A stretch of 64,000 nt of DNA. Origin: Promethearchaeia archaeon (GTDB lineage: Archaea; Asgardarchaeota; Lokiarchaeia; Sigyniarchaeales; SOKP01). The notes below the pieces were generated by a model. It worked only from the letters and a program-made list of their open reading frames with translations, searched no databases and had not been told where the DNA came from. The position numbers and the translations under genes are program-made. Positions 8,924-37,650 of this stretch are shown here, one piece after another. The stretch spans positions 1 to 64,000 of the forward strand of contig JAHQWH010000189.1 in assembly GCA_029856105.1 (NCBI GenBank), given 5' to 3'. The first letter of the stretch is position 1, and every line of letters starts with the position of its first letter.

Positions 8924-10492
8924 ATGTTTGTTGCTGCATTAGATTTAGGAACAACTGGTTGTAGAACATTTATTTTTGATTTAGCTGGAACTATAATCGC
9001 AAGCGATTATCAAGAATGGGAGAGTTTCTACCCTACGCCTTCCTATGTGGAACAGGATGCTAATGTGTGGTGGAAATCAATTAAAAGTACGATTGAGCGA
9101 GCAATAAAGAAGAGCGGGGTAGATAAAAGCGAGATTGTAAGTTGCTCAATTACCAACCAAATTTCAGAAAATTAATTTCTGGAAGGTCAAAGAGAAACAA
9201 TCGTACCTGTTGATAAGGAAGGAACTCCATTACATAACGCATTAGTTTGGCAAGATAGACGGACAACTGAACAGGTAGACTTTATAAAAAATAAAATAGG
9301 AATAGATAAAATTTATAGTACTACGGGTTTAACAATAGATCCGTATTTTTCAGCTACAAAGATTCTTTGGTTTAAAGACGAAAAGCCAGACATCTATCAG
9401 AAAACACATAAATTCTTGCTAGTTTCAGATTTTATAATCTATAAACTAACAGGAAAATATGTTAGTGATTTTAGTAATTTAAGTAGAACGATGTTATTTG
9501 ATATAAATAAACTCAAATATTCAGAAGATATTGCCTCTGAGTTAGAAATAGATTTGGATAAAATGCCAGATGCTATTGAAAGCGGAGTTGATATAGGAGA
9601 GATCGCTACAGAAGAGACTTTATTCGATAAAAAAACCTTGGTTGTTACAGGAGCAGGAGACCAACAAGCAGCAGCCCTAGGAGTGGGCGTCGTCTCTCCT
9701 GGGAGGATAAAATTAACGACTGGAACTGGAAGCTTTATTTTAGCTTATTTGGAAAAACCCAATTTCGACCCACAAAAGCGAGTATTGTGTAGTTGTCACG
9801 CAATCCCGGGGGCTTGGATCCAAGAAGCGAGTATTTTTACAAGTGGAGCTTTTCTAAGGTGGTTTAGGGACCAACTCGGAAGAGATGAATGCATAAAGGC
9901 TGAAGAACAAAATCAAGATCCTTACGTAATTCTAACGGAAGAAGCTGAAAAGTCTCCTATTGGGGCTAATGGACTATTAGCAATCCCCCATTTAGTTGGT
10001 GCTGGAGCACCATATTGGAATCCATATGCGAGAGGAATAATATATGGTTTATCTTTAGGTCATAAAAGGAGAGATATCGTTAGAGCGATTCTTGAAGGAG
10101 TAGCATTTGAAGTTAAAAAGAACATTGAAGTTTTTGGAGAGTTAGGGATTGAAACAAAAGAATTAAGGCTAACTGGAGGAGGGTCTCGCTCAGATTTTTG
10201 GAATCAAATTTATTCCGATGTATTAGGTTTAACATGCGTCAGAAATCTTATTGAAGAGGCTACATCGTTGGGAGCAGCAATACTAGCGGCTACGGGAGCA
10301 GGTTTGTTTTCAGATATCGCTAAAGCTGCCGAAAATGTGTGTAAAGTAGAAAATAAATGGAATCCTGATTTAAACCGACATGAGTTTTATCAAGATATTT
10401 ACCAATTATCGAATGATTTATACAAGTATTTAAATGAGAAAAATTTTTACAAAACTTACATCAATACGCTTCAAAATAAAAAATTAGTTTAA
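8924..10492 (+). CDS. FGGY carbohydrate kinase (glycerol kinase/xylulokinase-like), join(8924..9160,9191..10492), 512 aa after removing the putative intron
   Basis: DLGTTGCR, TNQ|RET, WQDRR, DPYFSATK, GDQQAA, TTGTG, GAGAPYW and TGGG motifs. Both ORF-track pieces are in the same frame, separated only by the TAA inside the 30-nt insert. Confidence 0.9.
9161..9190 (+). other. Putative BHB-type (tRNA-like) intron in FGGY kinase mRNA, 30 nt
   Basis: AACC-AA^A-TTTCAGAAA-ATTAA-TTTCTGGAA-GGTC-AA^A: 9-bp inner stem, two 3-nt bulges, central helix with 3 of 4 pairs, in-frame TAA in the loop. Removal gives AAC CAA AGA GAA ACA = NQRET. Confidence 0.8.
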
Positions 10493-10587
10493 ATCTTACA
10501 CTTTTTAAATGTCTTCTCCAAAATCAAACAACAATAAACAATTTTAAATATTTAGTTTGTTATAAATTTTTTATATAAAATAGAATA

Positions 10588-11193
10588 GTGAAAAAAATGG
10601 AAGAATCAAATATTGATTATAGAGGCAATTTTACTTCAAAACAAAGGGCAGTAGGAGAATTATTTTATATTTTTATTGTTATTGCGTGCTTAATTACAGT
10701 TACAGGAGGCATATGGTCAATATTTGACTTTGTAATGCCAACTGGAAAATTTGAAACTTTTTTAAACCTTAATTTAGGATACCAAATCGCAATAATCGCT
10801 GGATTTTTAGCAGGATTGTTCTTTCTTTTAATATTTTTCTTTGGGTTATTCAAGAAAGGAAGAAAATGGGTTTTACTGTTTATTTTTAATTTAAATGAAG
10901 TTGAAGAAAAGTATAAAAATCGTTTGGATGTTAAAATCGCAGCTGGAGGTTTGTTATTAAGTTTAATGGCAATTATTATTGGAATTATAATCGCTGTAAT
11001 TCAAGAGATATTTGGAAGTTCTAGTAGTACTTCGCCCTTTTCGGGATTGTTGGCATCTTTTACATCAGGTAACTGGATATTATTCACAGGAGTTTCAGTA
11101 TTTGCAGTTTTAGCCATCGCAATGTTTTTAATCTATTTTTGGAAGAATGGTTATTATCTCATATTAAAAATAATGGGCGTTTTAGAAAAATAA
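10588..11193 (+). CDS. Hypothetical 4-TM membrane protein
   Basis: Four hydrophobic helices in two similar halves. Confidence 0.7.
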   Translation: MKKMEESNIDYRGNFTSKQRAVGELFYIFIVIACLITVTGGIWSIFDFVMPTGKFETFLNLNLGYQIAIIAGFLAGLFFLLIFFFGLFKKGRKWVLLFIFNLNEVEEKYKNRLDVKIAAGGLLLSLMAIIIGIIIAVIQEIFGSSSSTSPFSGLLASFTSGNWILFTGVSVFAVLAIAMFLIYFWKNGYYLILKIMGVLEK

Positions 11194-11308
11194 TATACCC
11201 CAAACTTTTTTTACTACTTATTTTTTATTTTAAATATTTACTTCAATCAAATCAGTAAATTCTCTCTCTTATCTTATTTTTATTAATTAAGCGTCATATC
11301 TAAAATCA

Positions 11309-12835
11309 ATGCCCTTTAAGGTTGGTATTGTTTTTAATTTTCTTCAATTACCTGATGTTTCTAAGTACCCATTCGTAATTAACAAACGAAGTGACGATAT
11401 AATTGTTAAAAAGGGATTGTTTGTATCCACTAGAACAATTGAGGGTTATTTAATCGGCATAATTGAGAAAATTGTTTTAATAAACGAATATTTCTCGGAT
11501 GCCTTAACAATTAAATCCTATAACAGCAAAAATAATCCCAATATTCTCAAAGGGCTATTTCCTAGTGACGATTTTGAATATGCTATAGCTATCGTTAAGA
11601 ATTTAGGGATTATAGAGTTTAAAGAGGATAGCGAAAAAGAAATTAGATTAATAACAAGGATGACATATCCTGCGAGTCCCGGCAAAGAAGTTTATTTGGT
11701 AGAAGAAGACATTCTAAATAATTTTATAGGCTTCGATAAAGTGTATGGTTTAAATTTAGGAAAATTAAGGGTATCAAATATCGATGCTTATATAAACATG
11801 AATCGATTATTGAATAAACACCTTGCCATTCTTTCGATATCGGGAGGTGGTAAAAGTTATCTTACTTCTATTATTATTGAAGAATTATTAACAAGAAATA
11901 AAACTTTTGGAACGCCCGCAATTATTATGATTGATGTCCATGGAGAATACAAATATCTAAGTGCAACCTCTACTATAAAAAATAAAGTTAAAGTTATAGA
12001 CACTTCATATTTTCAAATTTCAGTACCTAGATTGAGTGCTTATTCTTTTAAAAAATACCAAGAGCAAATATCTAACGTACAAATAAGAGAATTATCTAAG
12101 TACATTAAAATGTTAAGAAAAAATAAAGATTTAAAGAATAATTATAATCTAAATAACATTATAGATGTAATTGAAAAAGAATCTGATGGTAATAAAAGTA
12201 CAAAACAAGCTTTAGTCGGATGGCTTTCTGATTTAGAACGTTTAACCCTTTTTGGTTCGCAAGAAAACCCAATTTTAAAGAAAGTCATAAATCAAGGAGA
12301 AATTACTATTTTTAATCTTCAAAACGAAATTTCGATTCGTAAAAAACAAATTATGGTTGATTATATTTGTAGTCGTTTGTTTTATCTAAGAAGAATGAAT
12401 GAAATTCCCCCTTTTTTACTAATTATTGAAGAGGCTCACCAATTTGCTCCTGAAGCAGCTCATTCTAAGGCACTATCTAAACATATAATTGAAACCGTCG
12501 CCAGGGAGGGAAGGAAATTCATGGCGTGTTTATGTTTAATAAGCCAGAGACCCAAAAAGTTAAGCACAACTGCTCTATCTCAAATTAACTCAAAGTTAAT
12601 TCTAAATATTAAGAACCCATACGATTTAAAGCATTTAATGGATAGTTCAGAGGCTATCACTAAAGAATACGCTGATATGATTTCAAGTTTAGGAGTAGGT
12701 GAAATGTTATTGATGGGGAATGCTGTAAATTATCCTATATTTTTAAAAATAAGGGAGAGAAAATTAACATCTCAAATTGAAAATATATCTTTAGCTCAAG
12801 TGTGTTTAAATTGGAAAAAATTCCAATCAGTTTAG
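11309..12835 (+). CDS. HerA-like ATPase (HAS barrel + DUF87)
   Basis: KHLAILSISGGGKS, IDVHGEY, IIEEAHQFAP, AREGRKF, SQRP. Confidence 0.85.
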   Translation: MPFKVGIVFNFLQLPDVSKYPFVINKRSDDIIVKKGLFVSTRTIEGYLIGIIEKIVLINEYFSDALTIKSYNSKNNPNILKGLFPSDDFEYAIAIVKNLGIIEFKEDSEKEIRLITRMTYPASPGKEVYLVEEDILNNFIGFDKVYGLNLGKLRVSNIDAYINMNRLLNKHLAILSISGGGKSYLTSIIIEELLTRNKTFGTPAIIMIDVHGEYKYLSATSTIKNKVKVIDTSYFQISVPRLSAYSFKKYQEQISNVQIRELSKYIKMLRKNKDLKNNYNLNNIIDVIEKESDGNKSTKQALVGWLSDLERLTLFGSQENPILKKVINQGEITIFNLQNEISIRKKQIMVDYICSRLFYLRRMNEIPPFLLIIEEAHQFAPEAAHSKALSKHIIETVAREGRKFMACLCLISQRPKKLSTTALSQINSKLILNIKNPYDLKHLMDSSEAITKEYADMISSLGVGEMLLMGNAVNYPIFLKIRERKLTSQIENISLAQVCLNWKKFQSV

Positions 12836-13099
12836 GTCTTCCAGAATTTCTTCTCTAATTTTTTGAGATTGTTTATTAAGCACAATCATCTTTTTGGTTT
12901 TTGAGACTCGGAAGACGTTAATAATAGTTCGGCTTTCTAATTTCATTAATAATTCTTCTAACATCAATGGGTTAATGTAAGGGAATTCCTTTTTAAGTAG
13001 TTCTTCCAATCGTTTATTTAACACTTCTCCTTTATTTTTAACTAGGATATCGATTAAAGAATTTACTACAGGCTTTTGATTCCAACGTTGTGTTTCGAT
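12827..13099 (-). CDS. Small winged-helix-like protein downstream of cdc48 (probable ATC/ATA start)
   Basis: The frame stays open upstream of the track's GTG (IETQRWNQKPVVNSLIDILVKNKGEV...), with GGTGA RBS at 13106-13110. Contains a wH-like LMKLESRTIINV. Confidence 0.6.
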   Translation of the reverse strand: METQRWNQKPVVNSLIDILVKNKGEVLNKRLEELLKKEFPYINPLMLEELLMKLESRTIINVFRVSKTKKMIVLNKQSQKIREEILEDLN

Positions 13100-13182
13100 T
13101 ATTGATCACCTTTTAATTAATTTTAGATAAAAATAAGTCTAATGCAATTAAAATGATTTTTCTCAAATTAACTTTATGAATA

Positions 13183-15414
13183 TTACGAAACCATTCGATC
13201 TTCTTTGGATTGTTCAATTATTCTACTTTTAAATTTTTCTACAAAATTTTCATACGATTTAATTACTTCGGGTAATATACTAGGGTTAATTAATTCTGTT
13301 GCCTGCTTAAAATGCTCTTTCGTAATTTTTCTTGCTCTTATATTTTCTCTAAGGGCAATCATACCCGCCTCGCGACATAATGTCTCAATATCCGCACCAG
13401 AGAAACCATTTAATGTCTTATTTAAGACATCCAAATCTATATTATTCGCAAGTGGCATATCTTTAGTAAATAATTTTAATATTTCAACTCTTCCTATTTC
13501 ATCAGGCGGGGGTACCAATAACATCCTATCAATTCTTCCAGGTCGGATTAAAGCGGGGTCTAAAATATCAGGGCGATTGGTAGCAGCAATCACCACTATA
13601 TCTTTCTTAACTTCTAAACCATCTAATTCAGTTAAAAATTGTGAAAGAACTTTTTCGGATACTCCTGAATCTGTAGTATGTCTACCTCTACTTGGAGCTA
13701 TTGAATCAAATTCATCAAAAAAGATAATACATGGTGCTGCCATTTTTGCTTTTCGGAAAACTTCGCGAATTGCTTTTTCGCTTTCTCCAACGTATTTAGA
13801 TAGCAATTCAGGTCCTTTAATAGAGATAAAATTAGCTTTACTTTCGTGTGCAACTGCCCTTGCCAAAAGTGTTTTTCCACACCCGGGTGGTCCATATAAT
13901 AAGACCCCTCTAGGGGGTTTTATTCCCATACGCTCAAAAATTTTTGGATGCGATAAAGGCCAATCTACAGCCTCTATTAGTTTCTGTTTTAATTCCTCTA
14001 ATCCACCTATCTGCTCCCAAGAGACATTTGGTATTTCAACGAATACTTCTCTTATTCCAGATGGCATTACTTCCTTTAAAGCCTCCTCAAAATCAGCTTT
14101 AGTTATCTTCATTTGTTCAAGTAATTCAGGATCTATCATTTCAGAATCTAAATCAATCTTTGGTAAATACCTCCTAAGAGCTGCCATCGCAGCTTCTCTA
14201 CACACTGCCATAATATCTGCACCAACGAATCCATGAGTAACATTAGCATATTCTTTTAAAGATATTTTTTCGAGAGGCATATTTCTCGTATGAATTTGAA
14301 AAACTTCTCTTCTTCCTTTTTCATTTGGAACTTTTATCTCAATTTCGCGATCAAATCTACCTGGACGCCTTAACGCGGGATCTAAACTATTAGGTCTATT
14401 TGTTGCTCCAATAACGATAACTCTTCCTCTACTATGTAACCCATCCATTAAGGCTAATAATTGAGCAACAACCCTTCGCTCTACTTCGCCAGTTACAGTT
14501 TCTCTTTTTGGGGCAATTGCATCGATCTCATCTATAAATATTATTGATGGGCTTTTTTCTTCAGCGTCGATAAATATTTTTCGTAGTTTTTTCTCAGATT
14601 CGCCATAAAATTTGCTCATAATTTCTGGACCGTTTATTGAAATAAAATAAGCTTCACTTTCATTAGCTACAGCTCTCGCTAACAGAGTTTTTCCGCAACC
14701 AGGAGGTCCCCTTAGTAAAATTCCTTTGGGGGGATCAATACCTAGACGTTTAAATAAAGAGGGGTGTCTTAGTGGAAGTTCAACCATTTCTCTAACCCTT
14801 TGTATCTCGCGATCTAATCCACCAACATCCTCATAGGTAACATAATCAGCTCCCCTTTCTTCGTCTTCAGTAATACGTTCGCTAATATGTAGAGCTGTTT
14901 CGGGTTTGATTATACAAACTCCACTTGGTCTTATGCTTATAACTTTAAACGTAATCTCTCGACTTATTCCTATTGAGATAAATATAAAATCATCAATCGT
15001 AACTGGATAATTATTAAGTTTTCGTTTAACGAAAGTTTCGAATCTGGGATTAGATTTTATTTTTACGCTTATTGGTGCTAAAACAATATTTTGAGCGGGG
15101 TGAGCGTTAACTTTCTGAATTTGGATTGTTTCATCTATACTTGCTCCCGTATTATTTTTTAATCTAGAATCGATGCGAATAATGCCTAATCCACTATCTT
15201 GGGGATAACTCGGCCAAGCAATTCCCGCACTTTCTTTCTTTCCAGAAAGAGCGATGACATCGCCAGTTTGAATGTTTAACTTTTCCATAGTTTCTTGATC
15301 AATTCTAGCAATATTACGGCCAATATCCCTTTTTTTAGCTTCTTGCACCCGTAGTGCAACTATTTGTGAATCTTTACTATTTGGTCCCTTTTTATCGTTC
15401 TCTTTAGTTGACAT
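13183..15414 (-). CDS. cdc48: CDC48/VCP (p97) AAA+ ATPase
   Basis: N-domain plus two AAA modules (GPPGCGKT twice, IDEID/FDEFD, RPGRFDR). Confidence 0.97.
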
Positions 15415-15507
15415 TTTTGATCGAATAAACAAAATTTAATTTTCAATATATATAAAGTAATAATTTTGTAAAAATTTTTCCTTTTTTTCTAATATTAAGT
15501 TTTAATT

Positions 15508-16557
15508 TTATTTGAAGAAGTTGTCCAAGGACACTTGTTTTTTAGAAGAGGCTTGCTTTTTCAACCGTTCAATTGCGTTTTCAACCCTGATTTTTGAAAA
15601 ATTGTGTTCCTCTATCAGTAATTCTTTAACTTTATCGTAATTAATTTTTCCCCACATTATCTTTGGATATTTTTTTTTTACATCTGGATATAAAAAGATA
15701 TCTTTTATTTGATCAATCATTTCTTTTTCTAGTTGAATTTCTATGTTACCAATTTTTACATTGTTTTTTAAAATATTTTCTAAGGAACCAAATTTCTTGA
15801 TTAGGTCATAAGCCTTATGTTGGCCAATTCCCTTAATTCCAGGGAAAAAATCAGTTCCTATTAAAATCCCCATCTCTATCAATTGTTCTCGAGTAATATT
15901 TAAATTTTCAAGAAATTTAGATAATGAAATGTATTCTATATCTAAAGTGACTGTAGTATCTCTAACCTTTTTACTTCTGCTTATTGCGAAATTTCTAATT
16001 AACCTTTTTCCTCCAAATAATAATGTGTCATAATCCTGGGATGCACAAGCCCAAGCATCACCAGCTTCAACTAGAAAGGCAGATTGAGCCTCACCTTCAG
16101 AGCTCGCCTCTACAATTGGAATCCCCAGATTTTTTAATAATTTTTTACTATCTTCAATCATATTCGTATCTAATTTGGATGTCATCTGAGCGAATTTTTT
16201 CGCACCTCTAAAATCTTCCTTCTCTTGAGCTTTTATCATTTTTTCCTTAGCATCTTCTTTAATTCTCCTTCGTTCTCTTATTGTTTCTAATTTTAATTCA
16301 GAAGGAGTCCCATCAAACACATAAATTGGTTTGATGTTATACTCTAAAAAATTTATTGTTCGATAAAATAATCCGGATAGATGAGAAGTCACATTACCAT
16401 TATAATCTTTTAAAGGAGTGCCATCTCTTTGCCTAATAATTGCTAAAAATTGATAGATCGTGTTAAATGCATCAATGGCAATCTGTTTATTTAATAGGTT
16501 ATCAAATGTAATTGTCCTTCTTACATCTTTCACTAATTCGTTTATTTTAGTACCCAT
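15508..16557 (-). CDS. fen: Flap endonuclease 1
   Basis: DAFNTIYQFL, EGEAQ, SQDYD, GTDF and a C-terminal PIP box QVSLDNFF. Confidence 0.97.
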   Translation of the reverse strand: MGTKINELVKDVRRTITFDNLLNKQIAIDAFNTIYQFLAIIRQRDGTPLKDYNGNVTSHLSGLFYRTINFLEYNIKPIYVFDGTPSELKLETIRERRRIKEDAKEKMIKAQEKEDFRGAKKFAQMTSKLDTNMIEDSKKLLKNLGIPIVEASSEGEAQSAFLVEAGDAWACASQDYDTLLFGGKRLIRNFAISRSKKVRDTTVTLDIEYISLSKFLENLNITREQLIEMGILIGTDFFPGIKGIGQHKAYDLIKKFGSLENILKNNVKIGNIEIQLEKEMIDQIKDIFLYPDVKKKYPKIMWGKINYDKVKELLIEEHNFSKIRVENAIERLKKQASSKKQVSLDNFFK

Positions 16558-16616
16558 GTTTTATCTTTTTTATTTTTATCTAATATTAATTTATATTTTT
16601 TCCTATTTATTTTGCA

Positions 16617-17171
16617 TTATATTTTTTCCTTTATTAGTGGTCTTCTTTTTAGTTTAGAACCACACATTTCACAAATTTTATTAAAATCTTTAGGTTTGAA
16701 AATTGTTTTGCAATGGGGGCAATATATCTCAAAAAATATCTTTTCTTTTATACCCTCCTTAAACATAGGCATAAATTTTATCTTTAATTCGCTACATAAA
16801 TTCTCCATGGAATAATCGTTTGTGTAGAGAACAATCTCTTGGTTATATGTGTCCATCAATTCTAAAGCTAATGCAATCAAATTCACATCAGCATCAGATA
16901 ACGCATTTATATCGCCCGTTAGTTTAGATTTTTCGTCTACTTTGTTAATGTAATTTTCATTAGCTTCTTTTATAATTAATTTTCCAAGTTCAACTGCCAC
17001 TTCTATTCTATGTATAATATTTCTATTCTTATCTTTATATCTTTTAACTTGAATCTCATCGATAATTTCTGGAGTAGTGAAAATTGTCTCCTTAAAAAAA
17101 TTGAAATCGATACCTTTTAAAAAAATATTAGTATCAAAAACTAGAATTGAACCCTTCTTCAGGGCTATCAT
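16617..17171 (-). CDS. nob1: Nob1-like PIN-domain endoribonuclease
   Basis: FDTN, LSDAD, TNDYSMEN and a C-terminal CxxC...CxxC zinc ribbon. Confidence 0.88.
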   Translation of the reverse strand: MIALKKGSILVFDTNIFLKGIDFNFFKETIFTTPEIIDEIQVKRYKDKNRNIIHRIEVAVELGKLIIKEANENYINKVDEKSKLTGDINALSDADVNLIALALELMDTYNQEIVLYTNDYSMENLCSELKIKFMPMFKEGIKEKIFFEIYCPHCKTIFKPKDFNKICEMCGSKLKRRPLIKEKI

Positions 17172-18060: not shown

Positions 18061-18173
18061 CGAACTCAGACTTCTTTTGTATTTTTTTTTACTTTTATTG
18101 ATATTTTACAAAATTTAATAAATTTTAATAAAATAAAATTCTAATTCTGCTCAAAAAAGTTTATAATAACGTT

Positions 18174-20135: not shown

Positions 20136-20148
20136 ATTAAATTAGAAT

Positions 20149-22257: not shown

Positions 22258-22896
22258 ATGACCGATGAGAACTCTTTTACTTTAGAAGATGGTATATCAT
22301 TAATAAGATTTGCTCGAGACAATATTGAATTTTTCCTTAAAAACGATCGAAGGATACCCATTCCAGATGACATTAAAAATAAATTTTCAGAGAAATATGG
22401 AGCATTTGTCACTTTAAATACAGTAAATGAGCCAAACAACCATTTACGAGGCTGTATAGGTTATATTGAACCAACTTTTCCATTATATGATGTAATTCAT
22501 AGAGTTTCAATTAGTTCAGCAATTGAGGATCCGCGTTTTCCATCTGTTTCACTCGAGGAAATGAACGATATTGTTATTGAGCTTTCTATATTAACACCTC
22601 CTAAATTGATCAAAGTAAATCATCCAAAAGATTATTTTGATAAAATTGTTATCGGGAGAGATGGACTTATAGCTGAAAAAGGTATGAGAAGGGGATTACT
22701 TCTTCCTCAAGTACCAATTGACCATGGGAGAGAATGGGATGTAGAAACATTCTTAGGTCATACTTGCGCTAAAGCATGGCTCTCAAATGACGCTTGGAAA
22801 GATAATAAAACAAAAATTTTTTCATTTCAAGCTATTCTGTTTGAAGAAAAAGAACCAAGGGGAGAAATTATTAGGAAATATCTCACTCCACACTAA
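22258..22896 (+). CDS. AMMECR1-domain protein
   Basis: GAFVTL, LRGCIG, DPRF, GLLLPQV. Confidence 0.93.
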   Translation: MTDENSFTLEDGISLIRFARDNIEFFLKNDRRIPIPDDIKNKFSEKYGAFVTLNTVNEPNNHLRGCIGYIEPTFPLYDVIHRVSISSAIEDPRFPSVSLEEMNDIVIELSILTPPKLIKVNHPKDYFDKIVIGRDGLIAEKGMRRGLLLPQVPIDHGREWDVETFLGHTCAKAWLSNDAWKDNKTKIFSFQAILFEEKEPRGEIIRKYLTPH

Positions 22897-22921
22897 AATT
22901 TACTTAAAGATAGTGAGCATT

Positions 22922-24433
22922 GTGGAAAATAATGAAAATAAGATAATAACAATTGACATTTCATCTAATTCTGTAAAGATTGGGTTAGTTTCAGAACAAT
23001 TAAAATTAGAAATTACCGATTCTCAAAATATTAATGTAATCAATGAAGATCTCGATGGTTTTGCTAAAAGATTTGATATGGATGACTTATGGAACAAAGT
23101 AAATAACGGAATAAATCGTATTTTGAAAAATTACAAATCAGTCGTTAATATTATTGGAATCTCTTCTTGTACTCAAAGAATAGCTACGGTTTTTTTGGAT
23201 AATTCAGGTGATGTAATCTATGGGGGGCCTAATATAGATATACGGGGGATAGATTCTGCGTATATGATAGATGATGAATTTTCAGAAAGAGATTTGTTTG
23301 AAATAACTGGTCATAGTCCTCCTTTATTATTTTGTCTAGCACGCTTATTATGGTTCAAAGAAGAAGAGGAAGAAACATATGAAAAAATAAATAAAGTATT
23401 AATGTTAGATGATTGGTTGGTTTATCGTCTTACTGGAAACTATGTTTCTGATTTATCATCAGCTGCTGAATCTCAGATATTAGATATAAAGAAGAGAGAA
23501 TGGAGTTCGGAAATAATTCAAACTTTTGATTTTGATCCAGATTTCTTTCCTGAAATCGTGGAATCTGGGACGATCGTTGGCGAATTAAAACCTGAATTAG
23601 CAAAAAGTTTCAACCTTAGCCAAAATAATATTCCTGTTATAAAAACAGGTGGTGATACGCAAGCGACATTATTAGGCATGGGTATTATTGAAGATGGAGA
23701 TATTGGAATTAGTTTAGGCACAACCGCCCCAGTTCATCTCGTCGTAAATAAACCTATTTTTGATCCCAATAATAATTATTGGACATCGTGCCACTCAATA
23801 AAGGGTAAATGGTTAGTTGAAGGCCACGCAGGTAACACTGGTGCCGCGTATAATTGGTTTAAAGAATGCTTTTTATCAAGTTTAACTAATAATTCAGATT
23901 ATTCGATAGAGCAATATTTAAAGAACTCAACGCCAGGGGCTTTTTCTACTTTTGCATTCTTAGGACCCGAAAAAATGAATATTAAAAACCAAACTTCTAT
24001 TAAAAGAGGTGTATTTGTTTTTCAACCGCCTACAATGATCTCTGAAGAACTTCCTAAAATAGAAGATTTTGCTAGAAGCGTTTTAGAAAATATAGCGTTT
24101 GGTATATTCGAAAATTATCAAGCAATAAAGGGGTTTACTGATTTAAGTACAAGAACTTATTGTGCTGGTGGCATGGCCAAATCAGAAGGATTTTGTAAAA
24201 TATTAGCTAGTGTTTTAAACACCGAAATATCAGTTCCATATACTAAAGACTCAGCTTTTATTGGAGTAGCGATGAATACATTAAAAGGTTTAAATTACTA
24301 CTCGGATTATAGATCTATGATAAAAAACCTCTTGACTTATGAAAAAAATTTCAGCAATCCTACTAACTCAGATAATTACAAAAATATATATCTCGAATGG
24401 AAGAATTTAAAAAATAAAATCGACGATCTGTAA
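22922..24433 (+). CDS. FGGY-family carbohydrate kinase
   Basis: GGDTQA, SLGTT, CAGGMAKS. The probable start is GTG at 22922 after GTGAG. The first phosphate loop is divergent (DISSNSVK). Confidence 0.85.
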   Translation: MENNENKIITIDISSNSVKIGLVSEQLKLEITDSQNINVINEDLDGFAKRFDMDDLWNKVNNGINRILKNYKSVVNIIGISSCTQRIATVFLDNSGDVIYGGPNIDIRGIDSAYMIDDEFSERDLFEITGHSPPLLFCLARLLWFKEEEEETYEKINKVLMLDDWLVYRLTGNYVSDLSSAAESQILDIKKREWSSEIIQTFDFDPDFFPEIVESGTIVGELKPELAKSFNLSQNNIPVIKTGGDTQATLLGMGIIEDGDIGISLGTTAPVHLVVNKPIFDPNNNYWTSCHSIKGKWLVEGHAGNTGAAYNWFKECFLSSLTNNSDYSIEQYLKNSTPGAFSTFAFLGPEKMNIKNQTSIKRGVFVFQPPTMISEELPKIEDFARSVLENIAFGIFENYQAIKGFTDLSTRTYCAGGMAKSEGFCKILASVLNTEISVPYTKDSAFIGVAMNTLKGLNYYSDYRSMIKNLLTYEKNFSNPTNSDNYKNIYLEWKNLKNKIDDL

Positions 24434-28959: not shown

Positions 28960-28961
28960 AC

Positions 28962-29315: not shown

Positions 29316-29477
29316 TTTTTTAAATTCACCAATTCATCGAGTTAATTATCTTTATTATAAGTTTAGATTATATTCCATAAAAGATTAAACATATTCGCAT
29401 TATAATTATAAATTATGGAAGAATTAATAAATAGATATAATGAAAGTTATTCGATTGAGTAGCTATTAGAAAATTGC

Positions 29478-29888
29478 TCACCAAAAAGCATCTTGGAATT
29501 TTTTAATCGTTCCTTCTAAGCTATCTTCAATTTCTTTTTCAAAATTCATAAAAACGCTTACATCATTATCCCAATTAAGCAGAATGTCCTCTGAGTATAG
29601 GTCGAAAAATTTGCTAGCAATAAATAACAATTCTTGCATAACTTTTTTTTCTTTTACTTTTTTCGCAGAATTTGCTATAAATAGTATTTCATTTTTTTTT
29701 AACAGAGTATATCGTTTATCTTGTAATTCAAAATTAGATAACCCTTTATTAACAAGTTCTTCAGCAAATGAATTTAATGCGGCCATTAACCCACCAAAAA
29801 GTTGGTCGTCCATATTTTCGTCAAATCTGCGATGATAAAGAACGATTCCAGATTCGGTTAGAACCCAAATATCTTGTAATACTTTAAT
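29478..29888 (-). CDS. Longin-like domain protein (probable ATT start)
   Basis: The frame extends upstream to (I)KVLQDIWVLTESGIVLYHRRF...DDQLFGGLMAALNSFAEEL, a typical longin beta-beta-alpha start. Confidence 0.7.
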   Translation of the reverse strand: MKVLQDIWVLTESGIVLYHRRFDENMDDQLFGGLMAALNSFAEELVNKGLSNFELQDKRYTLLKKNEILFIANSAKKVKEKKVMQELLFIASKFFDLYSEDILLNWDNDVSVFMNFEKEIEDSLEGTIKKFQDAFW

Positions 29889-29962
29889 GGGTAATCATCA
29901 CATCCAAATTCAAATGTTAGTCTTTTTATAATATAATAAGAAAAAAAAGGTTTAAATTTAAT

Positions 29963-30706
29963 CTATTTTTCGCTTTTTGGTCTAATGTATCCAAAGTAAG
30001 CGCCTAAAATGGCAAAAATAACAAAAATCCAGGCTAAAAAGTAGAATAACGAAAATCCCGGTCCTCCTGCTAAAATAAGTATTCGATCAATTAAAAAGCT
30101 TAATGGTACAAGAATAAAGAATATAGCCATTATTGCTAAAGATAAAAAGGCTGTTTTAAAAACCTTGTTATCTGTCCCTTTATAAGATTTAAAGGATTCA
30201 ATGAAAAAGGGTATGTAAATTAATGCCATAAATATGAAAATAAATAGAAAAGCGTAAACATCGTATAGCGTATTTCCTCTCTGATATACAAATAAAGCAA
30301 ATCCTGCGGTAAAAATCGCATAAAGTGTTATGATAATTCTCAAAACCTTATTGTATCCTTTTCCGAAAACTTTTACTTTGAAAATGTACGAGAGATAGAT
30401 ACCAATAGACAAGAAAACAAAACTCATTCTAAAATCAATTATTCTAAGTAGAATCCACGACAAAGGTGTACCAGGATCTGGAAGGATGGAGTTATATACA
30501 TAATCGATTCCAGAATATAGTATAAAAACCTTCGATAACCAAGAAAATACAATTGCAATTATGTAGCTTAGGAAAATTAAGAAGAGATACAAAGTTAACT
30601 GGTGTTTCTTTTCGTAATATTTCATTAGGATTAAGACTAGAAAAATCAATGCTATTAAAATAATGAAAGTCTCAAAAACCATCCCAACGAATTGTATGTC
30701 AGTCAT
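29963..30706 (-). CDS. 7-TM membrane protein
   Basis: Seven hydrophobic segments and no catalytic motif recognised. Confidence 0.7.
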   Translation of the reverse strand: MTDIQFVGMVFETFIILIALIFLVLILMKYYEKKHQLTLYLFLIFLSYIIAIVFSWLSKVFILYSGIDYVYNSILPDPGTPLSWILLRIIDFRMSFVFLSIGIYLSYIFKVKVFGKGYNKVLRIIITLYAIFTAGFALFVYQRGNTLYDVYAFLFIFIFMALIYIPFFIESFKSYKGTDNKVFKTAFLSLAIMAIFFILVPLSFLIDRILILAGGPGFSLFYFLAWIFVIFAILGAYFGYIRPKSEK

Positions 30707-30821
30707 ATAAATTATTAAAAAGTAGAAGTATTTATATTTTAAGATTCTAAGAAATAAATCTGATTGATGAATATGATAATAAAATCAAGCAAAATCATAA
30801 AAAGTAGTTAAAAAATTCGAA

Positions 30822-31910
30822 TTAAACGGTTAAATAAGTAATTAATGTAGTTTGTATTGCACTTGGAGCTTTTTCTAGATTTGACAATTTAATGCCAACG
30901 AGTCTAACTTTCTTGTTCATTATTGAAAATTGATTTAATAAATCAACAACTACTCTCATTACTTTATTCTTATCTTGAATATGATGAGCAAAAGATTTTG
31001 AGCGAGTGTACGTTAAAAATCCTTCAAGTCTTATTTTTAAAGTTACCGTTCGATAAAATATCTTATTTTTAATTACTTTTTTATGAATTTTATTATTTAA
31101 TTCTTTAAGTTTAGTCAAAATTACTTTGAAATCATCCGTATCCTCATAAAAAGTTCGTTCCTTACTAATAGATTTTCTATCACCGCTAAATTCTTTCACT
31201 TCTCTATCATCAAAACCATTAGCAACTTTCCACACCCATTCACCATTTTTACCAAACAACTGAATCATTTTATGGAGTGGAATATTAATAATATCACCAA
31301 TCGTATTAATGCCTTTTTTATTGTAATACAATTTAGTTTGTTTTCCAATTCCGGGAATACGAGTAATATCCAAATCTTTTAGAAAAAGCTTTATATTTTG
31401 AGGTTCAATTACGGTAATTCCGTTAGGTTTATTACAATCAGAGGCTATTTTTGCTATAGATTTAGTCGAAGCACATCCAATCGAGATTGTAATACCTACT
31501 TTTTTTTGAACTTCGTCTTTTAATTTTTCAGCTAAATCTCTAACTTCTATATAATTTATACACTTATCTGATATGTCTAGATATGCCTCGTCAATACTTA
31601 CTTGTTGAAATATATCTGAATAGGAATTAACAACCTCCATTACTTCTTTTGAGGCTTTATGGTATTTCTCAAAATTGGGATGAAGATAGATTCCATGAGG
31701 ACATCTTTTATAAGCTTGGGATATGGGCATTGCTGAATGGAGTCCGAATTTTCGGGCTTCATAGTTACAAGTACTGACTACACCTCTTCCTTTTCCCTCT
31801 TTTGGGTCTGCTCCTATTACTATAGGTTTTCCTATATATATTGGGTTATCTCGTTCCTCAACAGCAGCAAAAAAACAATCTAAGTCGCAATGTAAGATAA
31901 AATGGCTCAT
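30822..31910 (-). CDS. dinB: DNA polymerase IV (Y-family)
   Basis: HCDLDCFFAAVE, CNYEARKFG, SIDEAYLD, KPNG. Confidence 0.96.
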   Translation of the reverse strand: MSHFILHCDLDCFFAAVEERDNPIYIGKPIVIGADPKEGKGRGVVSTCNYEARKFGLHSAMPISQAYKRCPHGIYLHPNFEKYHKASKEVMEVVNSYSDIFQQVSIDEAYLDISDKCINYIEVRDLAEKLKDEVQKKVGITISIGCASTKSIAKIASDCNKPNGITVIEPQNIKLFLKDLDITRIPGIGKQTKLYYNKKGINTIGDIINIPLHKMIQLFGKNGEWVWKVANGFDDREVKEFSGDRKSISKERTFYEDTDDFKVILTKLKELNNKIHKKVIKNKIFYRTVTLKIRLEGFLTYTRSKSFAHHIQDKNKVMRVVVDLLNQFSIMNKKVRLVGIKLSNLEKAPSAIQTTLITYLTV

Positions 31911-32088
31911 TTTTAATCGTTTTTAATAAATTGCATTAATTTAAACATTGTAAGTATATCCAAATAAAATAAAAAAAGTTAGACTATGTTGAATTATTAA
32001 TTTAAAATTGCAAAATCACATAATTCATCTCTAATGAATGTCTAATTCTATGAAATACATTTTTAATCAATCTTTAATTTAAAATCAT

Positions 32089-32775
32089 ATGGAAACGGAT
32101 AAGTTAGAACAACTTCGAAAAACGGTTGTAAGAGGTGCTCAAGAGATATATAATAAAGGGTTAGTTGAGGATGGAGAAGGTAATGTTAGTGTAAGAATTA
32201 ATAAAAATGAAATACTAGTTACGCCCACTTCAACAAAATATAACTTACTAAGTCCTGAGCTGATTGTCCATATGGATTTAGATGGAAATGTATTAGGTTC
32301 AGGTAAAATTCCATCCACGGAAGTTAAAATGCATCTTGCTGTTTATAAGGATAGACCTAAAGTTAAATGTGTTATCCACACTCATTCTCCTTATATTACT
32401 ATGCTTTCAGTTCTAAGAAGAGGCATTCCAATTATAATGGAACAACAATTAATTTTCCTTGGTGGAGAAATTAGATGTACTGAAATTACCGAAGCCCACA
32501 CAGAAGAAATGGGACTAAGTGCGTTGAAAGCGCTAAGTAGAAATAACGGAGCGATACTCGCAAATCATGGGGCTATCATATGCGGAAAATCTGTTGATCA
32601 TGCAGTTCGGTTTGCTATAATATTAGAAAAGTTGGCAAAAGTGTATTGGGGTGCACTACAAATTGGAGATCCATTATCTATCCCTAAGGAAAACCTTGAA
32701 GAACACGAGAAGATGTTTAACGGATTATTTGCTTGTTATCCACGAAAAATGAGGAGTAAAAACCCAAATAGTTGA
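32089..32775 (+). CDS. Class II aldolase/adducin family protein (fuculose-1-P aldolase-like)
   Basis: GNVSVR, PSTEVKMH, HTHSPY, NHG. Confidence 0.9.
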   Translation: METDKLEQLRKTVVRGAQEIYNKGLVEDGEGNVSVRINKNEILVTPTSTKYNLLSPELIVHMDLDGNVLGSGKIPSTEVKMHLAVYKDRPKVKCVIHTHSPYITMLSVLRRGIPIIMEQQLIFLGGEIRCTEITEAHTEEMGLSALKALSRNNGAILANHGAIICGKSVDHAVRFAIILEKLAKVYWGALQIGDPLSIPKENLEEHEKMFNGLFACYPRKMRSKNPNS

Positions 32776-33611
32776 TTTTTATGGAATTAGGTATCAGTTC
32801 TTTAGGAGATATTATCGACTTTGGACTTAGTAACAAGTGGAAGAATGTTGATGATTTTTTGTTTAAATCCACAGAAGCATGTCTTAATTTTGCCGAAGAA
32901 CAAGACATTGCTGTGGTAGAAATAGTTATAGATCCACAAAATATATTTATAAACGAGATAAAACAAAAATTCGTTGACTTGATGAGTTCTTATTCTATGA
33001 AAAAGCAAGTCCATGGTCCTTTTATCGATGTAAATTTATGTTCACACAATAATTCGATTTCTCAAGCTTCAGTAGAAGCCTATATTGAAACATCTAAACT
33101 TTGTGAAGAAGTAAATGTTAATATGATGACAATACATCCCGGTTTAGCGAACTTTATGATAGAATCAATTAGAGAATATAACAAAATTCAGTTAACCAAG
33201 GCGATTGAGACTTTATTAGATTTCACAAAAAACCTTAATTTAACGATTTGCTTAGAAAATATGCCCAAAAATACTAATATCATGTTAGATGAAAATAATA
33301 TTTACGAAATATTAAGGAAAATTAATAGAACTGATCTTTTTCTTACCTACGATACGAGTCATTTTTATACTAACAACGGAAATGTAGAGGATTTATGGGA
33401 AACATCCCATAACATTATCAAGAATGTACACTTAGTTGATAATTTCACTAAAGAAACCGATACACACCCGCCTCTAGGCAGTGGAAAGGTCAAATTTAAA
33501 GAAATCTTAGAAATTATCAACAGTTACAACTATAAAGGAGCTCTAATTATAGAACTATCCTCTAATAAGAAATTACAAGAGAGTATCGATTATATTAACC
33601 GGTTTTTGTAA
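32772..33611 (+). CDS. Sugar phosphate isomerase/epimerase (xylose isomerase-like TIM barrel)
   Basis: HGPF, IHPG, LENMP, DTSH, HLVDN, H.PLGSG, IIE. Confidence 0.88.
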   Translation: MIFMELGISSLGDIIDFGLSNKWKNVDDFLFKSTEACLNFAEEQDIAVVEIVIDPQNIFINEIKQKFVDLMSSYSMKKQVHGPFIDVNLCSHNNSISQASVEAYIETSKLCEEVNVNMMTIHPGLANFMIESIREYNKIQLTKAIETLLDFTKNLNLTICLENMPKNTNIMLDENNIYEILRKINRTDLFLTYDTSHFYTNNGNVEDLWETSHNIIKNVHLVDNFTKETDTHPPLGSGKVKFKEILEIINSYNYKGALIIELSSNKKLQESIDYINRFL

Positions 33612-33823
33612 ACAAATGCGAATATTCCATGATACGAAACTATTATTTTTAGAACAGCATTAATTTTTTTTACATTCTATTCTGCGTAATTTTTAAGGCC
33701 CATACTCTATCAATAATCTACAATCTAAATTCGCAATATAGTCTTGGAGAAAATTCTTAAATATTTATTAATAATTAAAATACTTAGTTTACTTTTTTAA
33801 AGACAAAATTGTCGTGTTTGATT

Positions 33824-35032
33824 ATGAAATTTTCTGCGTTTGGAGAAAGATTTTTATTTTTAGCACATCGTATAGACAAACACAATAAGGGATATGTAGA
33901 TTTTTATATTGGTCCAAAAAAAATACACGAAATCGTTGACAATGAGGTTATAACTTCACCAAACAAACTATTAACCGATTGCAAAGCTCTACAAAAAGAT
34001 TTGTCTAAACAAGGTTACGATAAAAAACGCGAGCGATACATAGAGAAATTACTCAGAGCAATGGAGTCTTCCATCGAAATTCTAAACGGTAGCGAGATTT
34101 CTATTAAGGAACAATTTTTAAGGCAGTATGATGTAGTCTTACAACCAGTTAAAGAATCTGAATTAGATAACTTAAAAGAAGAGTTTAACGCAGCATATGG
34201 TGGTCCTGGGAGCTTAGAAAAACGAATGAACAATTTAAGAGTACGACGAACTGTTCCGGAGGGTAAAGTATTTGAACTATTTAAAAAGGCTCTCAACATC
34301 ACGAGAGAGCGAACTAAAGATTTATTTGTCGATCTCTTACCTGAAAATGAGCATGTAAATTTAGAGTTAGTAAAAAATAACAATAAAAATAAAGCAAAAT
34401 GGTCTTATTACAATTGGTACTTGGGTAATTTTAGCTCCCGAATAGAGGTTAACCCGAATTATAACATGTATTGGACTGCATTTTTGTCTGCTGCCGCTCA
34501 CGAAGGGTACCCTGGCCATCATACAGAATTTACTGTTAAAGAACAGAGGTTATATCGCGAGTTAAATCAATTTGAACACTCAATTCTGCTACTAAATTCG
34601 CCCAAGTTAATAATTAGCGAAGGTATAGCGAATACAGCAGTTAATGTGCTTTTTTCTTATCGAAACCAAGCAGAAATTAGTTTACGAGAATTTTGTCTAA
34701 ATTCTTCAAAGGAAGATCCTCTTGATATTTTAATGAAACAAAATAAAGTGAAAGTAAAAACTCATCTTTTTTTGTATAATCTTGCATATTACGCGCTTAT
34801 TGACGGGTGGAGCGAGGAGAGATTAATTCGGTACGCAACCAGTTTTGAAATCTTTAGTCAAGAAAACATTAAAAATCAATTAAAATTAATATTTAATCCA
34901 GTATATTCAACTACTGTTTTCTCGTATAATCTAGGAACAAATCTCATAATAGATAAATACGGAGACCTTCTGAAAGTTAAGGACTTTCAAAACCTATTAG
35001 TAACCGCAATCTTTCCCTCAGATCTGGTGTAA
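33824..35032 (+). CDS. DUF885-like zinc metallopeptidase-family protein
   Basis: HEGYPGHH motif plus ISEGIA. Paralog of 62880-63998. Confidence 0.75.
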   Translation: MKFSAFGERFLFLAHRIDKHNKGYVDFYIGPKKIHEIVDNEVITSPNKLLTDCKALQKDLSKQGYDKKRERYIEKLLRAMESSIEILNGSEISIKEQFLRQYDVVLQPVKESELDNLKEEFNAAYGGPGSLEKRMNNLRVRRTVPEGKVFELFKKALNITRERTKDLFVDLLPENEHVNLELVKNNNKNKAKWSYYNWYLGNFSSRIEVNPNYNMYWTAFLSAAAHEGYPGHHTEFTVKEQRLYRELNQFEHSILLLNSPKLIISEGIANTAVNVLFSYRNQAEISLREFCLNSSKEDPLDILMKQNKVKVKTHLFLYNLAYYALIDGWSEERLIRYATSFEIFSQENIKNQLKLIFNPVYSTTVFSYNLGTNLIIDKYGDLLKVKDFQNLLVTAIFPSDLV

Positions 35033-35672
35033 GGCTACAATAATTGCATATATTGATTTTAATATAATATTTTATGCTAAATCATAGATTTATGTTTAAG
35101 ATTTTCTCAATTCCTTTTAATAATTTATCTTCTGAAAACTTGCATTATCTTCTTAAAGAATTTTTAATGAAAATATTAATTTAGAATAGATTTATTCTAC
35201 ATTGAAATAAATGTTTATTTAATAATCCTCAAATACGATTTGAGAGTTCGATAATTAATGTTATTCGCTTTTTATTTTTTAGGGGTTTAAATAAATATTA
35301 TCAATTAATTAATTAGTTTTGAAGAAACTAAGTATAAACATTTATATTCGGTTTCAAATTTTAAAGAAGAAGATATTAATTTCATTTCATTTAACAAATA
35401 GAGTGAAGAAAATGCCTGGTCAACCATATATCATACCATAAATGGATGTTTTATATAAAAACATCATATATTTTCCTTTCTTTTTTATACTTATTGTCGG
35501 TATTCCGATAATCATCCACCGCTGAGATCGGGGAAAGTTGCCTTTAAAGGGATTTTAGAAACTATAAGGTATTATCAATATAAAGGGGTTTAACCCAAAA
35601 ATTTCTCTAAAATTAATTTGTTTAATAGAAATTTTATACACTTATTTATGAAATAGTCTTATAAAATATATA

Positions 35673-36065
35673 ATGAAAATCATATCTCTTCAAATTAGCG
35701 ATGACTTGTTAGATAGGTTTGAAAAAGTTCGAAATCAGAGTGGATTTAGTTCAAAAAGCGAAGCGTTAAGAGATTCGATAATAAAATTCATTGAAATTCA
35801 TGAAAGTTTCGAAAACTTAGAAGGATATCGAATTATGACGATAAATCTTGTCTATCCATTTAAAGAACCTATTGCTGATGAAATTTCTGAACTTTATCAC
35901 AAATTTCACACCATAATCAAGGCCGTTACCGATTGGAGAATTGCAGAAAAAAAAATTGAAATAGTTTTAGCCGTGGGTGAAATTGGTGTTATAAAAGATC
36001 TTTATCAAGCTATATCTAAGATCAAAGACGTAATAAGCTCAATCCACGAAGTCATAATCGATTAA
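35673..36065 (+). CDS. NikR-like ribbon-helix-helix regulator
   Basis: N-terminal RHH (IISLQISDDLL...SKSEALRD) followed by an ACT-like domain. Confidence 0.75.
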   Translation: MKIISLQISDDLLDRFEKVRNQSGFSSKSEALRDSIIKFIEIHESFENLEGYRIMTINLVYPFKEPIADEISELYHKFHTIIKAVTDWRIAEKKIEIVLAVGEIGVIKDLYQAISKIKDVISSIHEVIID

Positions 36066-36076
36066 TTAATTCACAT

Positions 36077-36931
36077 TTAATCAAATCGAAGTGAAAAATC
36101 TACAAATTCGGTAGGTTTTTGCGTGAGCACACTTGTACTTATTATATCGGGCTCGGATATTAAATAATCAACTATATTATCTTGCGTGATATTTCCCGAA
36201 ACTTCAATAGTGACATTTTCGCGTAAATTATGCTTTTTTAATAAGTTAATCGCATCTTGTACGCTATCAGGATTCATATTATCTAACATTATTATATCTG
36301 CTCCGTTTTGTACAGCAATTAGAACATCCTCAACTTTTTCCACTTCAACTTCTATCTTTTTTGTGAAACTAACGTTGTTTTTCACATCTATGAGAAGTTC
36401 TGCGACATTTCCGTTATAAAATTTTAAGTGTGTTGACTTTAAAAGCACCATATCATCTAAGTTAAAACGATGTGTATCTCCTTTTCCAAAATCTACGGCT
36501 TTTTTTTCAAATAATCGTAAACCAGGAAGGGTTTTTCGAGTACATGCTATTTTAACTATTTTCCCGGATTTTTCAATTATCTTAACAAATTTACGCGTTG
36601 TTGAGGTAATTGCGCTCATATGGCTCATAAGATTTAAACCCACTCTTTCGCCTAACAAGATATCTTTAGTTTTTCCACGTAATTCTACTATTACATCTCC
36701 ATTTTGGATTTGATCGCCATCTTCTTTCCTGAGAGTAACATCAACTTCTAAAATATGAAATAATATCTCAATTTCTTCTATACCCGATAAATACCCGTCA
36801 CTTTTAGCAATAATCTTAGCGGACGAAATTGAATCCGAAGGGATTGATTTTGAACTAATATCAATAAACATACAATCTTCGTGCAAAAACTCTCTTATTT
36901 TTTTTTCAATTAAAATGCGATTAAAACTCAT
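36077..36931 (-). CDS. nadC: Quinolinate phosphoribosyltransferase
   Basis: CTRKTLPG, HRFNLDD, EVEVE, IMLDN, EVSGNI. Confidence 0.95.
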   Translation of the reverse strand: MSFNRILIEKKIREFLHEDCMFIDISSKSIPSDSISSAKIIAKSDGYLSGIEEIEILFHILEVDVTLRKEDGDQIQNGDVIVELRGKTKDILLGERVGLNLMSHMSAITSTTRKFVKIIEKSGKIVKIACTRKTLPGLRLFEKKAVDFGKGDTHRFNLDDMVLLKSTHLKFYNGNVAELLIDVKNNVSFTKKIEVEVEKVEDVLIAVQNGADIIMLDNMNPDSVQDAINLLKKHNLRENVTIEVSGNITQDNIVDYLISEPDIISTSVLTQKPTEFVDFSLRFD

Positions 36932-36987
36932 TTTTACCAGATTCTTTAAGCAGTATTATTATTATAGATTAAACACTAATTAAAATT

Positions 36988-37650
36988 ATGCATGGCATTG
37001 ATAAAATATTTATTGAAACTAATGAAATTAGGCTTGAAGCCGAGTTTTTTCAGTTGAAAAACTCGGTTGTTTTAATTTGTCACCCACATCCTCAATTTTT
37101 CTGGGTTTGAAACCCTAAAAAGGGAAAATATGGGGGCAATATGTACAACAATGTCGTATCTGGCGTTTTTAATATGTGTGTTCAAAATAAAATTTCATGT
37201 TTACGGTTTAATTTCAGGGGAGTAGGAAGTTCAACAGGAAGTCATACTAGTGGAAAGGGCGAGTTAAGCGATGTGGAAGCTTGTATTGATTTTTTAATAA
37301 CCGAGAAAAATATTGAAAAAATAATAATTTGTGGTTATTCCTACGGCGCTGCTATCGGGTGTTCTGTTGTAAATTTTTCTAAGAAAATAATTGGTTATTG
37401 TGCAATTTCTTTTCCTTGGGATTTTATGGGCTCAAAATATAAAAAACTTTCTCAAACTAAAAAACCAAAATTGTTTATTCAAGGGAATCGAGATACTATA
37501 GCACTCTATGAAAATTTTGAAAACCATTATAATTTCTATTTCGAACCAAAAAAGTATAATATTATTAATGGAGCCGACCACTTTTACTCGGGATTTGAAG
37601 AAAATGTCGCACAAGAAGTAAGCGAATTCTACAATTCGATTACAAAATAA
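36988..37650 (+). CDS. Alpha/beta hydrolase, join(36988..37094,37128..37650), 209 aa after removing the putative intron
   Basis: The ATG at 36988 is in frame (MHGIDKIFIET...ICHPHPQ|YGGNMYNNVV). Also RFNFRGVG, nucleophile GYSYG, QGNRD and ADHF. Confidence 0.9.
37095..37127 (+). other. Putative BHB-type intron in alpha/beta hydrolase mRNA, 33 nt
   Basis: CCCACA-TCCT-CA^A-TTTTT.CT.GGGTT-TGA-AACCC.T.AAAAA-GGGA-AA^A-TATGGG: 4-bp helix TCCT/GGGA, two 3-nt bulges, inner and exon stems, in-frame TGA in the loop. Removal gives CCT CAA TAT GGG. Confidence 0.85.

Follow-up and report, generated by a model that had tools for sequence, protein, structure and literature searches.

We analysed a 64,000-nucleotide stretch of DNA, hereafter the window, from a Promethearchaeia archaeon (GTDB lineage Archaea; Asgardarchaeota; Lokiarchaeia; Sigyniarchaeales; SOKP01). 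It comprises positions 1 to 64,000 of contig JAHQWH010000189.1 in the GenBank assembly GCA_029856105.1. Two of its genes, encoding an FGGY carbohydrate kinase and an alpha/beta-hydrolase, are each interrupted within a conserved motif by a short insert carrying an in-frame stop codon. A first-pass annotation had reported two such inserts of 30-33 nt, and they are indeed found at 9161-9190 and 37095-37127. Both can be folded into a bulge-helix-bulge (BHB) motif, the signal of archaeal splicing endonuclease. The features of the two genes are listed below.

8924-10492 (+): FGGY carbohydrate kinase gene, reading ...SITNQ, then 30 nt with an in-frame TAA, then RETIVP...
8924-9160 (+): kinase exon 1, from the ATG at 8924 to ITNQ; by translation, Pfam FGGY_N profile positions 3-78
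9155-9158 and 9159-9161 (+): exon strand of the kinase central helix (AACC) and 5' bulge (AAA); predicted cut after 9160, checked by hand
9161-9190 (+): predicted kinase intron, 30 nt, relaxed BHB type; in-frame TAA at 9173-9175
9162-9184 (+): kinase intron hairpin h', 9 bp, 9162-9170 with 9176-9184, one G-U pair; from the fold and a pair table
9185-9188 and 9189-9191 (+): intron strand of the kinase central helix (GGUC) and 3' bulge (AAA); predicted cut after 9190
9191-10492 (+): kinase exon 2, RETIVP to the stop; Pfam FGGY_N positions 79-245 and FGGY_C
36988-37650 (+): alpha/beta-hydrolase gene, reading ...CHPHPQ, then 33 nt with an in-frame TGA, then YGGNMYNNVV
36988-37094 (+): hydrolase exon 1, M...CHPHP, ending in the CA of a Gln codon
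37081-37088 with 37129-37136 (+): hydrolase outer exon-exon helix h, six of eight positions paired
37089-37092 and 37093-37095 (+): exon strand of the hydrolase central 4-bp helix (UCCU) and 5' bulge (CAA); predicted cut after 37094
37095-37127 (+): predicted hydrolase intron, 33 nt, canonical hBHBh' form; in-frame TGA at 37108-37110
37096-37100 with 37117-37121 (+): hydrolase helix h', UUUUU/AAAAA, 5 bp
37103-37115 (+): hydrolase apical hairpin, GGGUU-UGA-AACCC, the loop being the UGA stop
37122-37125 and 37126-37128 (+): intron strand of the hydrolase central helix (GGGA) and 3' bulge (AAA); predicted cut after 37127
37128-37650 (+): hydrolase exon 2, the A of the Gln codon, then YGGNMYNNVV to the stop; Pfam Abhydrolase_11 and Abhydrolase_1

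The hydrolase insert has a canonical BHB, with two 3-nt bulges on opposite strands and a 4-bp helix between them that is paired at all four positions. The predicted cuts would leave CCU CA|A UAU GGG, which reads P-Q-Y-G-G. Intron-less orthologues carry an uninterrupted HPHPQ(Y/F)GG, and the one from the congener G018 aligns across the junction without a gap.

To place the hydrolase insert among its relatives, we compared 22 orthologues whose genomes were drawn as belonging to one genus with this one. The intron is present in 16 and absent in six, with a length of 30, 31 or 33 nt. The carriers reach down to 60% protein identity with their exons intact, and in every one of the 16 the BHB-defined cuts restore HPHPQ|(Y/F)GG. 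Three species have an allele of 31 nt, whose frame is likewise restored by the predicted cuts; these three alleles lie beyond rescue by stop-codon readthrough.

An alignment of 18 sequences, made up of the 16 orthologues and two intron-carrying loci from a search of genome contigs, revealed which parts of the element are constrained. The exon tetramer UCCU, the 5' bulge CAA and the intron tetramer GGGA are invariant in 18 of 18, and the 3' bulge is only ever AAA or AAG. The remaining intron sequence drifts, with insertions and deletions in the apical part, and helix h' exchanges U-A, U-G and C-G pairs. The predicted structure pairs 91% of the alignment cells; sliding the partners lowers the figure to 36-70%. 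Compensatory change affects seven pairs and 21 cells (1-3 pairs and 1-4 cells with slid partners), and the covariation score was reached by none of 500 shuffles. Exon 2 is open in every species (170-177 codons), and its ratio of non-synonymous to synonymous substitution rates (dN/dS) among intron-carrying pairs has a median of 0.16 and a maximum of 0.28. These values indicate that exon 2 is under purifying selection. A gene constrained in this way must be expressed, and the insert must therefore be removed.

The kinase insert is of a more relaxed type. Its central helix consists of three pairs and an outer A.C mismatch between AACC and GGUC, and its outer helix h is weak, which gives an HBh'-like form. 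The loop of h' is AUUAA, with the stop UAA inside it. The FGGY_N profile is contiguous over the junction, with position 78 in exon 1 and position 79 in exon 2, so that 9161-9190 is an exact insertion into a conserved motif; the alignment to the intron-less G018 orthologue has no gap there. In silico, the predicted cuts give ITNQ|RET. The boundary can be slid within the flanking CAAA repeat, which leaves the product unchanged. We did not find this intron in the 40 relatives searched, and it is seen in this genome only. Where a same-genus orthologue was matched completely, its reading frame is open over 512-541 aa, and this holds even for relatives that are 92-94% identical. The kinase intron was gained recently, or else it is a recent lesion.

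The second of these options is part of a wider alternative, in which the inserts are footprints or insertions in decaying genes and their hairpins are incidental. The kinase lends itself to such an explanation, being interrupted by a private insert with a stop and a flanking 4-nt CAAA repeat, in a draft metagenome-assembled genome (MAG) with 6% contamination. For the hydrolase, decay is excluded. Its insert has been kept in 16 orthologues, down to 60% protein identity, with intact exons and a low dN/dS, and its structure covaries.

A genome-wide census was carried out against G018. The open frames of 2.29 Mb (about 60%) of that genome were aligned to the present one by tblastn, with no motif used, which gave a base of 445,000 cleanly aligned residues or 42% of the proteome. 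Since controls gave as many matches under loose criteria for alignments crossing an insert, only long, high-identity crossings were retained. G018 lacks the hydrolase intron; introns common to both genomes are invisible to this method. A test for shared introns, which looked for a BHB at the homologous G018 site, was rejected because it passes from sequence conservation alone. The census returned nine inserts of 29-33 nt, each with a stop or a frameshift: the kinase (30 nt) and hydrolase (33 nt) inserts of the window and the first seven in the list below. The last three have no G018 sequence for their region and are supported without that check.

C191:74089-74120: Elf1-like zinc-ribbon gene, 32 nt, junction PKIFTCPN|CGEKAIKV; same contig as the window, 10 kb past its end
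C74 (-): UDP-glucuronate decarboxylase-like gene, 31 nt
C10:60290-60319: gene with the motif MPMDIGGE|CQWVLGEY, 30 nt
C39 (-): thiolase, 30 nt
C161 (-): cobO, in the P-loop, 29 nt
C136 (-): histone, 29 nt
C83: PFK-like gene (GILTGGG|DCPGLN), 31 nt
Mevalonate kinase gene: 31 nt
C16:9747-9778: uL11, first intron, 32 nt
C16:9829-9857: uL11, second intron, 29 nt

Together these are 12 introns in 11 unrelated genes, nine from the census, one in mevalonate kinase and two in uL11. All 12 are 29-33 nt long, share a common cut geometry and have their frame restored in silico. A strict structural filter was passed by seven of the nine homology-defined introns. We also considered the in-frame inserts of 6-14 aa relative to G018 (n = 70). 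Among these, the stop-containing inserts of about 30 nt pass the strict BHB filter, applied at the site set by homology, in three of four cases, and the stop-free inserts, which served as controls, in three of 64. The latter show no BHB excess and were set aside as ordinary indels.

Some of the rules that had been read from the two window inserts do not carry over to this larger set. A length divisible by three, first proposed as part of the design, is found in only four of the 12, and the hydrolase intron itself is 31 nt long in three species. A stop in the apical loop, seen in both window introns, is not general. As to the A-rich bulges, exon 1 ends in a G/C-rich tetramer followed by A(A/C/G) and the intron starts with A in 11 of 12, but the 3' bulge is variable and not always A-rich. 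All 12 introns sit in Gly/Pro-rich conserved motifs. We suspect a retention filter, because only such codons can build the central helix in a genome of 30% G+C, although such a filter is inseparable here from an insertion preference.

In blastn-short searches the 12 introns and their flanks matched only themselves, both among one another and in the rest of the genome, with the exception of a duplicated C10/C26 locus, and no donor sequence or mobile family was visible in this genome. The introns thus lack the multiple similar genomic copies of an element resembling a miniature inverted-repeat transposable element (MITE). Transposon footprints in decaying genes, which the first-pass annotation had named as one outcome that would speak against introns, are opposed by this absence of similar copies as well as by the hydrolase dN/dS. 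As to the duplicated locus, C10:~60282-60327 and C26:~2507-2552 are identical including the intron, which may reflect strain heterogeneity or redundancy of the MAG.

By extrapolation, the introns not shared with G018 number about 20 per genome (Poisson range about 10-40), not hundreds. The density is modest also when judged by radical S-adenosylmethionine (SAM) domains, none of which is interrupted among the 34 in this genome, consistent with the estimate of ~10-40. The idea of a genome-wide system stands in so far as further cases lie on other contigs (uL11, histone, Elf1-like), while the scale that it implied does not. The reverse comparison yielded five introns private to G018 with full 4/4 central helices and the same geometry, among them one in a GTPase P-loop (GHIDHGK|ST) and one of 21 nt in the P-loop of a low-molecular-weight (LMW) phosphatase. 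Mini-introns of 20-21 nt in the catalytic CX5R P-loop of this phosphatase (LFVCSGN|TARSP) occur at G018_C17:37247-37267 and in the present genome on C10 (-) at ~15769-15788. The G018 copy has a full 4-bp central helix and the copy in this genome looks relaxed.

The spread of insert lengths also bears on the possibility that no RNA is spliced at all and that the ribosome skips the insert, either by programmed translational bypassing, as in phage T4 gene 60, or by stop readthrough. The kinase insert does lie between identical CAA codons, which could act as take-off and landing sites, and its stop follows within a hairpin. In the hydrolase and most other cases, however, the codons at the two ends of the gap do not match, and the CAA...CAA match of the kinase is taken as a coincidence. 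Readthrough cannot rescue inserts of 29, 31 and 32 nt or the 31-nt hydrolase alleles, and bypassing does not predict the conserved 3-4-3 register of bulge, helix and bulge or an invariant intron 3' end that pairs with the exon. We regard skipping by the ribosome as highly improbable.

The uL11 gene bears on the alternative of decay as well. Removal of both inserts yields a normal uL11 N-terminus (...VTGGSASGGPPIGPAVGPTGINIKDVV...), and no other match to the uL11 N-terminal family (uL11_N) better than E = 1.6 was found in the genome, so that the only credible uL11 gene holds two inserts. The second uL11 intron is found on 11 metagenome contigs, and in total introns occupy three alternative positions in a stretch of ~100 nt of the uL11 coding sequence. 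The alternative positions in metagenome contigs imply that intron turnover is fast and that the inserts are not an artefact of one assembly. Contigs L194, L196 and L198 are without the first uL11 intron; they are interrupted instead by another insert of 30 nt, which separates PPI from GP and lies ~60 nt upstream of the uL11 intron that was matched. Contigs L199-L201 have neither the first intron nor this insert. Decay is thus very unlikely for uL11 and possible only for the kinase taken alone. Given also that the inserts are single-copy and that each is removable exactly at BHB-defined sites, we consider it a very poor candidate for explaining the inserts as a group.

The genome encodes the enzymes that splicing of this kind would require. 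As first noted, no endA or rtcB gene lies within the window; both are encoded elsewhere in the genome. RtcB is found on the same contig (C191:86017-87324), 22 kb past the window end. An EndA paralogue on C107 has an Aeropyrum pernix endonuclease chain as its best match and aligns to that chain through the N-terminal loop (GISKPRLEYFSKP versus VEKPRGADFEGP); the catalytic Tyr, His and Lys are all retained in it. A second paralogue on C12 has Asp where the catalytic His is expected, as would suit a structural subunit. Asgard archaea have been reported to possess an (alpha-beta)2 EndA with an L1 loop, an architecture linked to broad substrate specificity (PMC5829648). The C107 and C12 proteins fit this architecture, which in turn would fit the relaxed motifs. 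The typing of EndA that had been proposed as a check thus turned up features linked to broad specificity. ARAGORN detected 20 tRNAs in this genome, 14 of them with an intron. The low total suggests that many tRNA genes are too interrupted for recognition. The counts agree with the heavily interrupted Asgard tRNA genes described previously (PMC11291895; also a 2026 preprint).

The same enzymes could in principle serve a different end, in that the motifs might be endonuclease sites at which a message is destroyed or down-regulated without productive ligation. Processing at BHB motifs is not confined to tRNA, rRNA being one example, and no ligated product was observed here. Under such a scheme, however, the genes would give no protein, yet purifying selection acts in the frames of both exons. 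The affected genes include a sole-copy ribosomal protein gene, and RtcB is encoded. We therefore give message destruction very little weight.

Taken together, we consider it very probable that the two window inserts are archaeal BHB introns in protein-coding mRNAs, which would be cut by EndA and joined by RtcB. The original proposal of non-spliceosomal BHB introns in Asgard mRNAs is supported by the restored frames, the covariation, the purifying selection and the presence of the enzymes. Cleavage and ligation in the cell, and the identity of the enzymes responsible, are what we infer from sequence. Several results pull in the opposite direction. The two window inserts have unremarkable folding z-scores (-1.3 and -1.9). 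The kinase motif is relaxed and its intron private, and for this gene alone a recent inactivation is possible. The exact spliced uL11 junction had no match in the metagenome contigs, all 11 of 11 matches being unspliced. Finally, ab initio scans of the whole genome showed no length peak and no excess over misregistered controls. These scans combined BHB geometry with the fusion of open reading frames (ORFs) and were run in three whole-genome versions, with and without codon-usage and best-frame filters, using misregistered pairings as controls, intron lengths of 14-80 nt and a search space of 7.3 Mb. An enrichment of BHB motifs within coding sequences had been suggested as a check on the intron proposal, and it did not appear. 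The motif has too few bits, and adjacent genes yield thousands of chance matches, so that scan enrichment cannot decide the matter; the homology route can.

We propose the following mechanism for the splicing of these introns. In the pre-mRNA, the last six bases of exon 1 would comprise a G/C-rich tetramer and two bulge bases, mostly AA. Pairing of this tetramer with the intron 3' end would create the central helix of 4 bp, flanked by two 3-nt bulges, the intron hairpin h' and, in the hydrolase, the exon-exon helix h. A two-subunit splicing endonuclease may then cut after the second base of each bulge, and RtcB would join the exons, restoring ITNQ|RET in the kinase and HPHPQ|YGG in the hydrolase. 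An unspliced message would give a truncated protein or, in the 31-nt versions of the relatives, a frameshifted one. Both window cases would belong to a genome-wide population of ~10-40 unrelated introns of 29-33 nt. The sets in G018 and in this genome are nearly disjoint, which indicates that same-genus species gain and lose these introns quickly.

A few further observations were made in the course of this work. Within the window, a third FGGY paralogue (22787-24433) was flagged by the genome search for one TAA; it proved to be a single intact ORF that simply ends at this stop. Upstream of the kinase, positions 3487-8859 (+) hold a 1790-aa ORF whose N-terminus, built of DDFDPNDTEE-type repeats, is extremely acidic; EQEREKLKLVDHEDEASEEDLKE... 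repeats come next, and after them several repeated units with a conserved LGF...M motif. Elsewhere in the genome, a candidate at C227:63063 proved to be two adjacent genes, and our filter picked up no intron near either copy of radA. On C74 (-), the register of an MvhD/FlpD-like motif (WEPKILAFLCNWCSYAGADLA) at ~14747 (reverse-strand coordinates) is displaced by 16 nt from that of the upstream alignment to G018; a frameshift, recoding or an indel in the alignment are possible causes.

The motif and the presumed enzymes are known from other systems; the novelty lies in the scale, in the organisms and genes concerned and in the dynamics of the introns. The nearest precedent is the BHB intron in the pre-mRNA of cbf5, encoding a pseudouridine synthase, in Crenarchaeota (Desulfurococcales, Sulfolobales) (PMC2738675). 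In 2009, archaeal pre-mRNA splicing had been confirmed for no gene except cbf5 (PMC2738675), and our searches turned up no later paper that adds to it. Our cases resemble it in having a BHB intron in a protein-coding mRNA, a two-subunit endonuclease, gain and loss among relatives and a gene that is unreadable when unspliced. They differ from it in that at least 12 introns of 29-33 nt are found in 11 unrelated genes of a single Asgard genome and in that congeners have nearly disjoint intron sets; here, moreover, splicing is deduced from sequence comparison. The tRNA introns of Asgard archaea share the motif, the cut geometry and the presumed enzymes, as well as repeated lineage-specific gains with no detectable donor. 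Unlike those of tRNA, the introns described here reside in mRNAs, their sites are Gly/Pro-rich conserved motifs, and the need to encode protein constrains the exon strand of the central helix. Full-text searches, whose coverage leaves out most subscription journals, and the two Asgard tRNA-intron papers contained nothing on mRNA introns in Asgard archaea.

The first-pass annotation had also drawn a line from these introns to eukaryogenesis by way of HAC1/XBP1 mRNA splicing, which we find to hold as an analogy only. Both systems involve non-spliceosomal cutting of an mRNA and protein-catalysed ligation, with a small intron that changes the reading frame, and in metazoa the exons are joined by an RtcB-type ligase. 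The nuclease there is IRE1 acting on twin stem-loops, not a tRNA endonuclease acting on a BHB. That system has one regulated substrate, whereas here there are many introns, and the likeness is not one of homologous systems.

What maintains and distributes these introns is a more speculative matter. They may be an actively spreading minimal class that enters mRNAs and tRNAs, and/or their removal may act as a post-transcriptional gate on key genes; we regard these ideas as rather unlikely, though worth stating. In the first case, entry could occur, for example, by reversed action of the endonuclease and ligase followed by copying into DNA. Introns would then persist only where a G/C-rich codon tetramer and an A-rich dinucleotide can form the central helix. 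In the second, the genes under control would be uL11, histone, Elf1-like and P-loop enzymes, in a cell without a nucleus.

The same splicing machinery is apparently required for ~10-40 unrelated genes in one genome, including a sole-copy ribosomal protein gene and a histone gene, and the host belongs to the archaeal phylum closest to eukaryotes. For annotation, this means that many genes recorded as split or as pseudogenes in Promethearchaeota MAGs are probably intact, and that estimates of completeness and metabolic reconstructions are accordingly likely to be biased. For cell biology, with transcription and translation thought to be coupled, it raises the question of how unspliced messages are kept off ribosomes. 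For evolution, the disjoint intron sets of congeners and the three uL11 positions offer a tractable system in which introns may be caught as they are gained, an issue central to how eukaryotic gene structure arose. If the introns were indeed spreading, or if their removal were a gate on gene expression, the closest archaeal relatives of eukaryotes would be a living model of how mRNA introns originate and come to be tolerated.

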